DNA of 64,000 nt from Bacteroidota bacterium (GTDB lineage: Bacteria; Bacteroidota; Bacteroidia; J057; JADKCL01). Made by a program: the position numbers and the translations under genes. The notes under the pieces are model-generated. The model searched no databases, was not told where the DNA came from, and worked only from the letters and a program-made list of their open reading frames with translations. The DNA lies in NCBI GenBank assembly GCA_039024435.1, contig JBCCQH010000005.1, forward strand, positions 29,433 through 93,432, read 5' to 3'. This document shows positions 6,597 to 24,091 of this stretch, one piece after another. Every line of letters starts with the position of its first letter. The first letter of the stretch is position 1.

Positions 6597-9500
6597 ATGA
6601 GCACAGTTATCGTGATGGTCCCCATCCACGCCGATGGGTACTTTCTCGGCCAGGATCGCATGGCCGCGGAAGCCTTTGCCGATTTTTCCCGCCTCCCTTA
6701 TGCCAATGCGGAGCGGGATATCAATGCCGATACCCCCAATCTCAGCGAATCCATTCTGTCCGTTCCCTTTCAGAACAACAACCTGACTTTGGGCCAGGGG
6801 ATGCACCTGCACTGGTCGCTGCCCGATGCCCTCACCAAGGGCAAAGCGGGCGGTACCCCCGACGATTTCTACGCGGTGCCCAACCGCTGGCTGGTCACCC
6901 GCAAAAGCACGCTTCTGGGCGACATGCAGTGGATCGTAGAAAGCGATTACCTCCATACGGACTCCGAAAATACCTACGGTGGCATCACCTATCCCCTGGA
7001 TACGCCCAAAATCGAAGGCCAGCGCCACGGCTTCCTGGGCCGCCGATTCAACCGCATTGATTGGCAGGAAGATGGGAGCGCCGAACGCGTCTCCCGCCTG
7101 ACCGCCGTCGGCTACGGTGAGCCTACCTTCGCGGCTTTCTATCCGAATTGCCACAGCGTATTTGGCTGTTTCGATCCGCAGGTCGATACCCAAGCCAAAA
7201 CCGCGGGCCTGAGCTACCAGATCATCGGCTGGTACAGCGACAGCGCCCAGGATCCCGTCGCGGCCTGGATCAGCGCCAATCCCTCCGCCACCAACGCGGA
7301 GATCGTCGAGGGCATCTACGACAACTTTACCTGGAACGTCACCTTGGACAGCGCCGATACGCTCCAGGGCATGGTTTGCTACGCGGACCTGCAGGTGGAC
7401 ATGTCCGCGACCAGCGACATTGAGGATACCGCCCAGCACGCAGACGCCACGGTCAGCGTGGGCAGTACGGGGACGGAAGCCCTCTCCGCTTTCCTGGCCG
7501 ACGACGCCAATTCCGAAGCTGACGCCACCGCCCGCATCCAATTGGAAGAGCAATTGGAAAACCTGCTGTTGCAGACCAAACTTTCCGCCAATGACCTGGA
7601 CCTGGGCGCGCGCTTCGTGGAGGCACGCCACGAAAAGGGCTTTGTCGCCACCCGTGGGGGCAGCCTTTATGAAGTGCATCCCGCGAGTGCGGACGCCAAC
7701 GACAGCTCCGTCGACCTCAACCTGCCGCCCGGCCTGGAGACAACGCTGAGCGAACTCAACCTCGCCCAGCAATCCGAGGACGAGGCGGGCTACGCGCTGG
7801 AAAGCCGCCGCCAACAGCTCTACGCCGATTGGTCCAAGTACATGGTGACCGCCTATCCCCCCAATGGCATCGATGAAGGCTATCCCGATGTGGATGCCGT
7901 ACAACAATTCATCGCTTCGCAGGACATTCCCGCCATTCAGGATACCCTCCTCGACCAAGCCCGCGCGCAAATCGCCACCGCGGAACTCCTGTCCGCAATG
8001 CAAGTGCAGGTCAATGCTTTCAACGACAGTACGGTAGAATCTTCCCTCTTCCTGAGCGATCTGACCGCCGATCCCGTGAACCAGGGCCGCATCGTCCTCA
8101 CCAATGCGACCTTCCCCAAAGGAGCGCCCTTTGCCACGCAGGTCACCGCCTTCAACGGCACCGACGCCAACCTCACCATGAACCTGGAATTCAATCAGGA
8201 TTCGGCAGTCAAGTCCCTTTCCATGTGGGTCAACCTTGCCGGACAAAACGAATCGGGCGCGGCGCTGCTGTCCACCCAAGCCTTGGGCAAATTGATCGCC
8301 GAGGACGGCATTTTGGACTTCTGGGATACTTTCGCGATTGACGGCGTGGAGCAACCCAGCGACGAATCCCTGAAATGGAGCAGCTTGCCCAAGGAGCAGT
8401 GGTTCCACCTCTACGTGGAGTTCTCCACGGCTCTGGAAAACACCGACCTCCTCTACCTCTTCAGCAACGGCAGCGCCGATTTTGCCGCGGGCAAATTGGG
8501 TGCGGTACGGGTCTTCAGCACCGCGCTGAGCGAGGATGAGCGCTATTTCGACCAAAATATGCTGGGGCAGTCCAACTTCGAACTGAAGCGGGTCGCGGGC
8601 CTGAAATTCTGGCAGCCCACGGAACCCGTCCTGCTGATCGAAGGTGAAGTCGTGGAGCCTACGGTACGCCACGGCGCGGACGGCCGCCTGACGGCAGACA
8701 AAAGCCTGGACTGCGACGGCACCACCGTGACCGAATTTCCCTTGGAGGCGGACGACCTCGACGGCGTCCTGACCGCAATCGCCGCGGGCGCATCCAGCAG
8801 CGAGGAACAAATCGGATACCGCAGCCAGGCGCAGCAACCTTGGAACCCCTTCCTGCTCGAATGGGAGGCGGAAATCCACCCCATGTCCGAAAGTGGCAAC
8901 CTCAACATTGCCGACAAAAGTTTCGGGAGCGACTTCCTCACCACCAATTTCAGCCTGGACGAAAACAGCCCCGAACTCACCGTTCAGAATGGCAAAAGCG
9001 TGATCAGCGCGGCGGCGACTTACACGGGCCGCGCCATCCTCACCCCCTACGCGAAGACGCAGTTGCTGAGCACCATCGTGGGCCAATTGAATGGGCTGCT
9101 GGAAGCAAATTGCTACCAGGTCATCGGGGACATCTCGGATAACGATGCCACGCACTACGCCACCGACCTGAGCGACTGGTTCGCGAACAAGCCCACGCTG
9201 GAGGAATGGTTCGCCGACGACGCGGCCTACGACACGCAGATGACCACTTTTGAGGAATGGTACCTGGGCAAGCCCGTGTATTCCGCGGCGCCGCTCACGC
9301 TGCGGACGGTCTTCACCGATTCCACTACCAATACGTTCGACGAGACCGCTGCCCGCCTGAGCGACTTCAACTACGCCCTGATCAAAGCTTACCAGCAGGC
9401 CCGCAGCTCGCACTTCATCTCCCAGGCACTGAGTGGATTCAACAATGCGCTGCTCATGCACCAGCAAGTGATGCAACTGCCGGTGGAGGATCCGCTGGGC

Positions 9501-22204: not shown

Positions 22205-24091
22205 ATGAGCGATACAAGCAATGTAAAATTCATCGAGTTCCACCAGCCCGCGCTGGAAAGTGGAACCTACAAAGTGACGGTCGAACAAGACGTGTCCGCC
22301 ACCGGCATTCCCCAGCAAAATTACGGCGCGGAGCAAGTCTTCTTCGTGGGCGGGGAGCGCTTCCAGATCTTGCCCACTCAGATTGCGGGGGTCTTCCCCC
22401 CCCATCTGAGCGTGGGCGACCATTCCAATGTCTTTCCCCACCTGATGATTTCCCGCAATACCCTGCCCTGGGAGCGGGAGGCGGTCTCCGGCAACCCAGA
22501 AATCCCCTGGATGGCGCTGCTGGTCGTCCATTCGGAGGAATACAGCCTCGTCAATTCGTCGAGCACCACCTTGGGAAATCTGATCGCTGCCTCCCAGAGC
22601 CCTAGCTTTCCCGGCGTCGCGCTGGAACCCGGCCAGTCGGCCACGCAAAAAGTCACCGTATTGGACGTCGACGGCAGCTTGCTGGACCAGATCCTGCCCG
22701 ATCCCAATGCCATGCAGTACCTCTCCCACGTGCGCCAGGGGCTGGACGACGGCCTCGCCCTGGCCGACGAGGGGGAAGACCTCGCGGTGCTCATCGCCAA
22801 TCGCCTCCCCGAGGCGGGCGGCAACAGCACGGTGTACCTGATCTCGCTGGAAGACCGCTACGACGGACAGGGCAACTTCATCGGTTGGACCAACGAGGAA
22901 GGAAAATCCATCCGCTTCGTGCAGTTGTACTCCTGGAAATTTACCTGCACCGATCCGGACAAGGATTTCCCCAACTTGGTGTACCATCTGGACAACAACC
23001 AGTCCTCCCTCCGCAAAGGGGACACGGGCACTGCCGCCGTAGATGACTTTCTGAAAATGGGCTTCTATCCTTTGCCCCACAAGTTGCGGCAGGGCGGGCA
23101 GACTGTTTCCTGGTACCACGGCCCGCTGGCCCCCAGCTCCAATGGGGAAAGCATCGATTTTCCCGCGGCGGGATCGGACGCGCTGATGCGCTACTATCCC
23201 TCGGTCGGCATGTTCGATGCGTCTTACGCTTCGGCCTGGGAATTGGGGCGGCTCCTGGCGCTGCAAAACACGCAGTTTTCCACCGAGCTGTACCAATGGA
23301 AGCGGCGCTACGCCCAGGCGGGCAATGCCGCCGACCAAACGGCGGCCAGCGGAGTGGCACACCTGAACGGCGGCAACCAGGATACGAGCACGGAAGCCAT
23401 GCCCGCCACTTGCCTGAGTTGGCTCGACGACCTGAAGAAGCTCAAGGGCGTCCCCTTCGGCTACCTGGTGCCCGATGAAGAACTGCTGCCCGCGGAATCG
23501 ATTCGCTTTTTCCAGGTGGACAACCTGTGGCAGGAGTCCCTGCTGGATGGCGCCTTGAGCGTGGGGAGGGTGACGAGCAGCGACGTGGACCTGGACACCG
23601 ACATCTACAATACGGAGGAGTCACTGAGCGCTTCCACGATGACGGGCTTCATCCTCCGCTCCGAGGTGGTCTCGGGCTGGCCGGGCATGTTGATTGAAGG
23701 CTATTCGGATACCGACGGCGCCAATTCGGTGAAGTTGTCGCGGCGCGATCTCCTCTCGAACAACGTGATGATCTGCCTGTTCGACGGCGACGTACAAGCG
23801 GTGGACTTCCACCTGAAGCCCGAAGTGCTGCACTTTGGGGCGCTTGCCCAGGGGGCAAGCAGCTACATCAAGAACCTCCGCGATGGCGATGGCGAGGAGA
23901 ACGGCCCATCGATTTCCCTGCCGCTGAACACCAAGCGCGCGGTGGACGTCTCGGAATTGCTGGCCCGCATCCAGAATGCGAGTGACGCGAACCCGGGCCT
24001 CGTGGAGTGGCCCAACCGTCCCACTTCCGCGGACCTCGCCCTGCAAATGTTGGAAGGCATCGATCGGATTCGCTTCCAACGCAAGGTTTAA
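22205..24091 (+). CDS. Giant-operon gene 5: 628-aa orphan protein
   Basis: Complete ORF 19 bp after gene 4, with natural composition. Motifs such as 'LPWERE......PWMALLVVHSEE' and 'LKGVPFGYLVPDEELLPAESIRFFQVDNLWQESLLDGALSVG' are noted, but I recognise no characterised family. No signal peptide. Confidence 0.8.
   Translation: MSDTSNVKFIEFHQPALESGTYKVTVEQDVSATGIPQQNYGAEQVFFVGGERFQILPTQIAGVFPPHLSVGDHSNVFPHLMISRNTLPWEREAVSGNPEIPWMALLVVHSEEYSLVNSSSTTLGNLIAASQSPSFPGVALEPGQSATQKVTVLDVDGSLLDQILPDPNAMQYLSHVRQGLDDGLALADEGEDLAVLIANRLPEAGGNSTVYLISLEDRYDGQGNFIGWTNEEGKSIRFVQLYSWKFTCTDPDKDFPNLVYHLDNNQSSLRKGDTGTAAVDDFLKMGFYPLPHKLRQGGQTVSWYHGPLAPSSNGESIDFPAAGSDALMRYYPSVGMFDASYASAWELGRLLALQNTQFSTELYQWKRRYAQAGNAADQTAASGVAHLNGGNQDTSTEAMPATCLSWLDDLKKLKGVPFGYLVPDEELLPAESIRFFQVDNLWQESLLDGALSVGRVTSSDVDLDTDIYNTEESLSASTMTGFILRSEVVSGWPGMLIEGYSDTDGANSVKLSRRDLLSNNVMICLFDGDVQAVDFHLKPEVLHFGALAQGASSYIKNLRDGDGEENGPSISLPLNTKRAVDVSELLARIQNASDANPGLVEWPNRPTSADLALQMLEGIDRIRFQRKV

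Follow-up and report, generated by a model that had tools for sequence, protein, structure and literature searches.

A widespread five-gene DUF6603 module encoding large proteins without Sec or type IX secretion signals in a Bacteroidota bacterium

We analysed a 64,000-nucleotide stretch of contig JBCCQH010000005.1 from a Bacteroidota bacterium (hereafter the window), in which five genes at positions 6597-24091, P1 to P5, encode large proteins that lack recognisable export signals. We found that this region is one copy of a very widespread, previously undescribed five-gene module made up of three conserved core families (P4, P5 and P1), a fibre-like protein (P2) and a variable enzyme slot (P3). 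We tentatively propose, with a probability of about 45%, that the products would form an enzyme-carrying, surface-targeting complex that is assembled in the cytoplasm and released without the general secretory (Sec) pathway or the type IX secretion system (T9SS), a proposal built on analogy with known toxin complexes. An earlier reading of the same DNA from its letters alone (the sequence-only reading) had seen here an export paradox, namely extracellular-type domains without Sec, lipoprotein or T9SS signals among T9SS-tagged neighbours. The context of the module mostly removes this paradox, and the missing T9SS tags are mostly to be expected.

All five genes lie on one strand and are separated by intergenic gaps of 130, 101, 25 and 19 nucleotides (nt). 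Protein lengths are given in amino acids (aa).

6597-11030, + strand: P1, 1477 aa, from the open reading frame (ORF) list; conserved core family F2, no Pfam family, no signal peptide
11161-14346, + strand: P2, 1061 aa; putative modular targeting/fibre protein of family F3, always 3' of the P1 gene
14448-17504, + strand: P3, 1018 aa; variable enzyme slot 'X', directly 5' of the DUF6603 gene
17530-22185, + strand: P4, 1551 aa; DUF6603 protein of family F0, the signature of the module
22205-24091, + strand: P5, 628 aa; conserved core family F1, no Pfam family, always 3' of the DUF6603 gene

The module is conserved across phyla

One genome per species was scanned for relatives of P4, which were present in 80 genomes, and the 80 loci fetched were compared by tblastn and ORF clustering. 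About 70 of the 80 loci contain the P4, P5 and P1 families together, and in all of these the genes share a strand. P5 homologues were identified in 72 of these DUF6603 loci, P1 homologues in 70 and relatives of P2 (family F3) in 48. The usual gene order is X-F0-F1-F2-F3, that is (X)-DUF6603-P5-P1-(P2-like), and a circular permutation of it, F2-F3-X-F0-F1, is found in about a dozen loci, including this window and those of Herpetosiphon and Westiellopsis.

Among the hosts are Bacteroidota (Chitinophaga, Saprospiraceae, Cytophagales, Aquimarina), Chloroflexota (Herpetosiphon), Cyanobacteria (Microcystis, Moorena, Okeania), Actinomycetota (Micromonospora, Streptomyces), Acidobacteriota, Planctomycetota (Gimesia), Alpha- (Mesorhizobium), Beta-, Gamma- and Deltaproteobacteria, Spirochaetes and Bacillota (Ruminococcus and Paenibacillus plasmids). 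A few megaplasmids (Paenibacillus, Streptomyces) carry copies. Most of the sampled host phyla lack the T9SS and some hosts lack an outer membrane; the monoderm carriers, which include Paenibacillus, Streptomyces and Ruminococcus, have no T9SS.

In a set of 1.84 billion representatives, the P5 family profile matched 5,411 clusters at 50% identity (E <= 1e-3), and 3,373 at E <= 1e-30, and more than 1,036 relatives of P1 were detected at E <= 1e-10. Wherever a homologue is named it is a 'hypothetical protein', with the exception of one JGI 'ketosteroid isomerase-like' label, and the sole precomputed Pfam domain among the homologues is PG_binding_1, in two relatives of P1. RefSeq lists the Paenibacillus copy as a 'DUF6603 domain-containing protein' followed by three hypotheticals. 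Neither 'DUF6603' nor 'PF20248' was found in any paper of the library searched and a keyword search gave nothing relevant. Searches of NCBIfam, PADLOC and PHROGs yielded no match for P1, P3, P4 or P5.

One cyanobacterial chromosome (L086, 5216-12462) carries an intact P5 homologue amid short fragments and an ORF with a LamG fragment, with IS605 OrfB/TnpB nearby, which looks like a decayed copy of the module. On the Paenibacillus polymyxa plasmid p-YT9A (L083), a large 'phage baseplate assembly protein V' gene at 1-3879 lies about 8 kb upstream of the module and is followed by pentapeptide-repeat, GH-E nuclease and ankyrin genes. This part of the plasmid resembles a polymorphic-toxin locus distinct from the module.

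Absence of export signals is a family-wide property

Signal peptides were sought with crude rules for hydropathy and charge, and T9SS tags with Pfam and NCBIfam hidden Markov models (HMMs). In the hydropathy scan, none of P1-P5 has a positively charged n-region followed by a 12-residue hydrophobic core, and none has a 19-residue transmembrane (TM)-like segment. Inspection by eye of the first 50 residues revealed no lipobox cysteine after a hydrophobic region and no twin-arginine (RR) motif; the only cysteines in this part are C44 of P2 and C31 and C47 of P3. P1 has the sole hydrophobic start among the five (MSTVIVMVPI), which alignments A3 and A6 place on the conserved, predicted first beta-strand of its family (consensus MxxxLMVPIHLDAL) and not on a signal. 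An in-frame stop codon lies 6-96 nt 5' of each of the five ATGs with no ATG, GTG or TTG in between. A start-codon correction therefore cannot supply a signal peptide, and we rejected it for all five genes.

The T9SS C-terminal domain (CTD), in the form of Por_Secre_tail/TIGR04183 or CHU_C/TIGR04131, had no Pfam or NCBIfam match in P1-P5 at E <= 0.01. BLAST comparison of the last 150 residues of each protein with three local CTDs gave E > 0.4 throughout, and a hidden T9SS CTD was rejected on the HMM scans and this comparison. The sequence-only reading had described the N-termini as free of signal peptides and lipoboxes and the C-termini as unlike T9SS CTDs, and had named T9SS HMM searches and corrected start codons as tests of its case. 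The N-termini are as it quoted them, and both descriptions held: the searches found nothing and the upstream stops leave no start that would add a signal peptide.

It had also pointed to three neighbouring genes as carrying clear T9SS CTDs:

1419-5714, - strand: T9SS comparator with SprB repeats, PKD and CHU_C (5e-16)
25093-26484, + strand: T9SS comparator outside the module, with Por_Secre_tail (6.8e-12) and the classic signal peptide MYRISISLSLVLYLLATPILAQ
35361/35406-36863, + strand: T9SS comparator with YHYH; its Por_Secre_tail match of 22.9 bits (E 1e-4) is below the cut-off of 27

We recovered clear CTDs in the first two; the tail of the third falls below the cut-off. Two neighbouring T9SS substrates were positive for a signal peptide by eye. 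In ORF 35361-36863 the signal peptide MKKALYFLSIVLFSANLLPAQ starts at Met16 (nt 35406), and this later start is probably the true one.

Across the sampled loci (our own ORF calls), signal-peptide-like N-termini were found in 1/78 F0, 0/91 F1, 2/71 F2 and 0/62 X proteins, compared with 73/572 other ORFs, and both F2 cases are false positives on the conserved first beta-strand. Database homologues with independent gene calls had no signal-like N-terminus either (0/266 P5-like and 0/120 P1-like proteins, 0/386 in all), and Met1 is conserved in register in alignments A2, A3 and A4. Because signals are lacking across the whole family, their absence is an ancestral family-wide property and not an oddity of this bacterium.

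Five signal-less proteins are not statistically unusual alone, and the interest lies in their domain content and in the identity of the genes. Phage tail fibres, which are made and folded in the cytoplasm without a signal, are commonly built from LamG, Ig-like and S74-chaperone domains. Cytoplasmic assembly without a signal is likewise seen in Tc toxins and contractile injection systems (PMC10847048; PMC10066040). The premise that such domains imply Sec or T9SS export is thus weakened, since phage fibres with the same domains need no signal. The second premise of the paradox, that the contrast with T9SS-tagged neighbours is informative, is weakened as well: the module is shared with T9SS-less and partly monoderm hosts, and the contrast therefore says nothing specific about this operon or organism. 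The three explanations offered on these premises (lysis or vesicles as the way out, an export signal not yet recognised, or a function inside the cell) are logically sound, but both premises are weaker than was stated. As to the domains themselves, the LamG (1.5e-17) and S74 (1e-14) calls in P2 are solid, and those of LamG in P1 (1.6e-4) and of a Big-like domain in P3 (0.022) are weak.

P4, P5 and P1 form an apparently non-enzymatic core

P4 matches PF20248 over profile positions 1-497 of 502 (E 1.5e-138, 463 bits against a cut-off of 27). Three features of the core proteins bear on what follows:

20041-21540, + strand: DUF6603 domain of P4, aa 838-1337 (Pfam coordinates)
20392-20487, + strand: near-invariant hydrophobic Gly/Pro-rich stretch of P4, PS.FIYA.LD.PLGGPPFFFVTGL..GFGYNR, aa ~955-986
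7977-8666, + strand: lineage-specific insertion in P1, aa 461-690, weakly LamG-like (Laminin_G_3 E 1.6e-4, below the curated cut-off)

In the DUF6603 alignment (A7) the columns G968, G969, P970, G981, G983 and N985 are invariant. TM-like hydropathy was observed in 30 of 78 F0 proteins; P4 itself has no segment over the TM threshold. BLAST detected no internal repeats in DUF6603 proteins. Giant DUF6603 proteins of 3,000-3,600 aa are encoded at L035:3299-13453, L055:3599-13405, L068:2663-13528, L070:3221-12361 and L071:3344-13396, and their extra ~2,000 N-terminal residues (L035 and L068) have no Pfam match and no BLAST repeats.

Structures were modelled with AlphaFold2 and family alignments for two proteins, P5 (pLDDT 84, pTM 0.78) and P0166, a full-length P1 homologue of 1154 aa with 41% identity to P1 (pLDDT 81, pTM 0.78). 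Foldseek found no match in the PDB for P5 (best E 0.056, TM score <= 0.1) or for P0166 (best E 0.25, TM score <= 0.1), and none in BFVD for P0166 (best E 0.18). Searches of the PDB by sequence returned no relatives of P1, P3, P4 or P5 (phmmer) or of the P5, P1 and DUF6603 family profiles. The conserved positions of the P4, P5 and P1 families are mostly Gly, Pro, Trp and Phe. Judged from these alignments, the three proteins apparently make up a large, conserved, invariant core that is not enzymatic.

Insertions in the P1 family are concentrated at four hot spots, which map to core positions ~251, 495-501, 677-679 and 1122 of alignment A6. Two P1 homologues, P0220 and P0233, have PG_binding_1 (3.5e-10 and 3.4e-14) inserted at core position 495, and the LamG-like insert of the window P1 lies close by at core position 501.

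P2 combines a family-specific middle region with a phage-type fibre

The following regions were identified in P2:

11302-11748, + strand: LamG/concanavalin-like domain, aa 48-196 (PF13385, Laminin_G_3, E 1.5e-17, 64.5 bits against a cut-off of 27.6)
11761-12930, + strand: conserved middle region, aa 201-590, which defines family F3
12931-13989, + strand: phage-type fibre shaft, aa 591-943, with an internal duplication of ~90 aa (by eye)
13990-14346, + strand: C-terminal intramolecular chaperone, Peptidase_S74 (PF13884), aa 944-1061 (E 1e-14, 55 bits against a cut-off of 22)

The middle region has phmmer matches in 22 loci, all of them in F3 proteins, and tblastn ranges of ~205-590 recur in many loci; it is presumed to be the attachment module. 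The LamG head was found in only 4 other loci (phmmer), and the C-termini of other F3 proteins are Gp10_C-like or 7-bladed propellers. This domain pattern suggests that P2 is a modular adaptor in which a conserved middle is combined with exchangeable binding modules.

Over aa 586-1057, P2 matches long-tail-fibre families of PHROGs, with tail-fibre E-values down to 2.5e-28. The S74 domain begins with the autocleavage motif S944-DERL-K949, in which we take S944 and K949 to be the Ser/Lys dyad of endosialidase chaperones. With the SDERLK motif kept, it is probable that P2, like phage fibres, forms trimers and releases its chaperone.

In one Chitinophaga subtype of the module, a stand-alone protein of ~240 aa with a classical signal peptide is encoded just 5' of the X gene (L048:8174-8893, L050:8184-8891, L053:8170-8886, L058:8135-8854 and L060:8204-8938). 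Its sequence is similar to the C-terminal part of F3 proteins at other loci and contains the fibre motif NGNVGIGT..P.EKLQV, which P2 has as well. This protein may represent the fibre module as an independent unit exported by Sec.

P3 occupies a slot of unrelated enzymes

The gene directly 5' of DUF6603 differs in almost every lineage. We found endonuclease/exonuclease/phosphatase (EEP, PF03372) proteins in L012, L032, L064 and their relatives, metallo-beta-lactamases in L004, L006, L059 and Westiellopsis, a LanM-dehydratase-like DUF4135 protein in Chitinophaga, a subtilase (S8) in L034, a weak trypsin-like match in L054, a Lipase_3 protein in Moorena, and at least six unannotated families. These unrelated X proteins share no N- or C-terminal tag for packaging or export, and their families remain unconnected even at E 1e-3.

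14448-16817, + strand: EEP (DNase I-like) hydrolase domain of P3, aa 1-~790, with very large insertions
16818-17501, + strand: C-terminal beta-rich (Ig/invasin-like) region of P3, weak match to PF09134 (Invasin_D3, E 0.022)

P3 alone has no match to PF03372 even at E <= 1. It clusters with the EEP-type X proteins by BLAST (E < 1e-3), of which that of L012 passes the PF03372 cut-off (42 bits), and hhalign pairs it with the profile of these proteins at a probability of 91% over the N-terminal 50 aa only. In an alignment of eight sequences (A8), the positions N10, D44, E50, D549/N551, D630 and D785/H786 align with the catalytic positions of EEP enzymes, and N10, E50, D549/N551, D630 and D785/H786 are invariant. 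The best solved relatives of the A8 profile (P3 with the EEP-type X proteins) are DNase I (7.5e-6). These comparisons point to P3 as a divergent DNase I-like EEP hydrolase with all catalytic residues.

The composition of P3 sets it apart from its neighbours: its GC content is 0.496 and its GC content at third codon positions (GC3) 0.573, as compared to GC3 of 0.74-0.81 in P1, P2, P4 and P5 and 0.71-0.73 in two host genes, and it was rejected by a codon-usage filter trained on the operon. A tblastn search for P3 homologues found none in the 80 loci of other genomes. On account of its foreign composition and the missing homologues, P3 appears to be a recently exchanged cassette.

Genomic context

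The other genes of the window are housekeeping genes or encode ordinary secreted proteins (sigma-70, an SprB adhesin, ligA, MoaC/MoaB, MbnP and a MauG-like peroxidase). We surveyed 139 flanking ORFs from 45 related loci and examined the 25 commonest families, the most frequent being GNAT acetyltransferases, response regulators, sigma factors, DinB and SUF. None of the 25 is a phage, lysis, secretion-system or defence family. Sheath, tube, baseplate, spike, portal, terminase, integrase and AAA+ ATPase genes are absent from P1-P5, their neighbours and these flank families. A search of 2.9 million IMG/VR viral contigs with the P5 profile returned no relative, and neither did a search of 50,697 phage genomes with P5 itself. 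PADLOC assigned no family to seven proteins (P1-P5 and two small neighbours).

At 34585-37897 (+ strand), the gene of the YHYH protein, whose T9SS tail is weak, lies between those for MbnP (2e-35) and a di-haem MauG-like cytochrome c peroxidase (1.3e-53). The two outer genes look like a copper-related pair of the MbnP/MbnH type, with the gene of the T9SS-tagged YHYH protein inserted between them.

Leader elements and intercistronic hairpins

Two kinds of element were found between the genes of the operon:

6587-6595, 11141-11149 and 14430-14438, + strand: leader 9-mer CAACTAAAC before P1, P2 and P3, the first copy 1 nt from the P1 ATG
11043-11104, + strand: GC-rich intercistronic hairpin between P1 and P2 (RNA fold -42.4 kcal/mol, z -3.0)
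14354-14381 and 14394-14410, + strand: GC-rich hairpin pair between P2 and P3 (RNA fold -38.5 kcal/mol, z -4.2)

The 9-mer occurs exactly three times in 64 kb, as compared to 0.29 expected, and none of 100 shuffles reached three copies. Its copies end 1-11 nt 5' of the ATGs of P1, P2 and P3; P4 and P5 have very short 5' gaps and lack it. It may be a shared translation leader or processing site. The hairpins have no clear U-tract and no Rfam match (the operon was scanned), and may set the ratios of the subunits by acting as intercistronic attenuators or mRNA stabilisers. A scan for sigma-70 promoters and terminators was uninformative, with counts at shuffle level and Bacteroidota promoters outside its coverage.

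Long antisense ORFs at 6420-10982 (- strand, 1520 aa) and 11173-13731 (- strand, 852 aa) overlap P1 and P2. They arise because the GC3 of the sense genes is high (~0.8), and length-greedy ORF calling takes the wrong strand at P1. We rejected the ORF at 6420-10982 as a gene; it is a high-GC3 artefact, and P1 has hundreds of homologues.

A proposed mechanism and its alternatives

We propose that the products of P1-P5 would come together as a multi-subunit complex in the cytoplasm, where they would also be made. P2, together with the LamG and peptidoglycan-binding inserts of P1, would steer this complex to glycan or cell-wall surfaces, and the propeller modules of other F3 proteins would have the same surface-recognition role. 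The variable X enzyme would be the active payload that the complex carries or presents. Exit would follow a route other than Sec or T9SS, most plausibly the lysis of a subpopulation of cells. Tc toxins provide a precedent, as signal-less megadalton complexes that depend on a type 10 secretion system (T10SS) for lysis of a specialised subpopulation (PMC10847048, PMC10847046).

Several observations weigh against this proposal. No holin, endolysin, spanin, secretion ATPase or exporter was detected among the window genes scanned (about the first 42 kb) or the 25 commonest flank families. There is no small immunity-like gene beside the DNase-like P3, which is unusual for an antibacterial nuclease toxin. 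The fibre and S74 end of P2 is rare in its family; elsewhere S74 was found only in L003, the closest relative, and a short stretch of shaft only in L015. Neither the LamG match of P1 nor the Ig-like match of P3 reaches its threshold. Finally, the core proteins resemble no known delivery machine, and 'particle' and 'payload' are therefore only analogies. A bolder form of the proposal appears doubtful to us: that P4, P5 and P1 self-assemble into a Sec-independent particle, docking through interchangeable modules and delivering or presenting an interchangeable enzyme, and that the module would thus be a new machine shared across phyla.

The alternative that we take most seriously, while holding it to be unlikely, is that the system acts inside the cell in anti-phage defence (abortive infection) or programmed cell death, the core sensing a trigger, the variable enzyme serving as suicide effector, and the fibre and LamG parts binding phage or cell-wall precursors or mimicking phage parts. 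Defence systems typically have slots in which nucleases, proteases and lipases are interchanged as effectors, and the X slot is of this kind. Signal peptides are absent in every phylum sampled, lysis and export genes were not found nearby (window scans and the flanks of 45 loci), and P3, predicted to be DNase I-like with all catalytic residues, has no immunity gene beside it, all of which would suit an intracellular role. Phage-tail-like assemblies can also act inside the cell, as do the cytoplasmic injection systems of Streptomyces (PMC10066040). However, PADLOC matched neither P1-P5 nor the two small neighbours, Pfam and NCBIfam detected in the module none of the domains typical of a sensor, such as an NTPase or a helicase, and its flanks are housekeeping and regulatory genes and not defence islands or mobile elements. 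The peptidoglycan-binding, LamG and propeller modules, and the Sec-exported paralogue with the fibre motif, point to the envelope or the outside of the cell.

The flank survey, in which no lysis genes were seen, would also fit a dedicated export route, in which the core (for example the DUF6603 protein) forms or uses a new Sec-independent pathway that places P2, P1 and the enzyme on the surface without lysis. The near-invariant hydrophobic stretch of DUF6603, TM-like in 30 of 78 homologues, could be read in the same way, and the module is self-contained and present in monoderm and diderm hosts. We consider such a route improbable: the module encodes no ATPase or other energy source, the P4 of the window has no segment over the TM threshold, the unrelated X proteins share no terminal motif that could serve as a tag, and one and the same core is found in monoderm and diderm hosts, although export across one membrane or two would require different machinery. 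That P2 is the left-over tail fibre of a degenerate prophage or tailocin, and the other genes decayed phage structural genes with no present function, is very improbable. P2 does match many PHROG tail-fibre families and has an S74 chaperone, but all five ORFs are long and intact, the P1, P4 and P5 families keep a fixed order from one phylum to the next, IMG/VR has no match to the P5 profile, phage genomes have none to P5 and BFVD none to the P0166 model, and no sheath, tube, baseplate, portal, terminase or integrase was matched. Classical export that went undetected, through true starts further upstream or through divergent signal peptides or T9SS CTDs, deserves the least weight of all. Detection did rely on crude hydropathy rules and HMM libraries, but each ATG is preceded by a stop within 6-96 nt with no alternative start, the N-termini are conserved from residue 1 across phyla with 0/386 homologues signal-like, and the C-termini, which do not resemble the local CTDs, are also conserved where a phylum has no T9SS. 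We leave a small share of the probability to mechanisms other than these.

Comparison with known systems

The module resembles the Tc (ABC) toxins of Photorhabdus, Yersinia and Serratia in its very large subunits encoded side by side, the absence of signal peptides and of a dedicated ATPase, the receptor-binding modules on a conserved scaffold and the hypervariable enzyme, which in Tc toxins is the toxic part. Tc toxins are assembled in the cytoplasm and released by lysis of a subpopulation (PMC10847048, PMC10847046). It differs from them in that P1-P5 have no Pfam match to TcA (VRP1, TcA_TcB_BD), TcB (SpvB, mid-N/C) or TcC (RHS/YD), the models of P5 and the P1 homologue match no PDB fold and the P1, P4 and P5 families no PDB profile. 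The variable enzyme of the module is a separate gene, whereas that of Tc toxins is the C-terminus of the cocoon protein, and no T10SS lysis cassette was found in the scanned part of the window (about the first 42 kb and neighbours) or the flanks of 45 loci. The module is found mainly in environmental, filamentous and predatory bacteria and not in insect pathogens.

Tailocins and the extracellular and cytoplasmic contractile injection systems share with the module exchangeable receptor-binding fibre ends, swappable cargo and the lack of Sec signals. They are found in similar hosts (cyanobacteria, Bacteroidota, actinomycetes), and some act inside the cell (PMC10066040). Unlike these systems and the type VI secretion system, the module has no sheath, tube, baseplate (gp25, gp27, gp6), spike or AAA+ ATPase in P1-P5, the neighbours or the 25 commonest flank families, and P2 is its sole phage-like protein. 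P2 itself resembles the S74-chaperoned (endosialidase-type) tail fibres and tailspikes of phages in its above-threshold S74 domain, SDERLK motif and PHROG-matching shaft repeats, but it lies in a non-phage operon and is fused to an N-terminal LamG domain and a 390-aa system-specific module, and most F3 members have other binding modules in place of the fibre end.

T9SS cargo proteins of Bacteroidota are found in the same genome and neighbourhood and have similar beta-rich, adhesin-type domains; P1-P5 differ in having neither an N-terminal Sec signal peptide nor a C-terminal CTD. Anti-phage defence systems with exchangeable effectors likewise combine a conserved core with a slot of unrelated hydrolases and cytoplasmic proteins, whereas the module lacks a PADLOC match, an NTPase or helicase and a defence-island context, and has envelope-binding modules. 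By these comparisons only the C-terminus of P2 is a true member of a known family, the S74-chaperoned tail fibres; P4 falls in a Pfam domain of unknown function, and P3 is a predicted divergent EEP protein. At the level of its core proteins and architecture the system appears categorically new, and its function is proposed by analogy.

Significance

The export question is moderately interesting and the underlying module considerably more so. Extracellular-looking domains without signals are a useful flag for phage-like or lysis-released assemblies. The P1-like and P5-like proteins are two large families that deserve Pfam models, and the operon is now defined for work in cultivable hosts. Among its carriers are Microcystis, which forms blooms, the predators Herpetosiphon and Saprospiraceae, Chitinophaga and Paenibacillus, which are associated with plants, and Streptomyces, which produces antibiotics. 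If the module is a functional machine, a multi-protein system has gone unnoticed in thousands of genomes, and it would bear on how bacteria attack or sense their neighbours, how very large proteins leave the cell without Sec, and whether the system could be used as a programmable scaffold for protein delivery. If the proposed delivery function is true, the module would be, in functional terms, a fourth kind of large toxin-delivery complex beside Tc toxins, contractile injection systems and polymorphic Rhs and contact-dependent inhibition (CDI) toxins.

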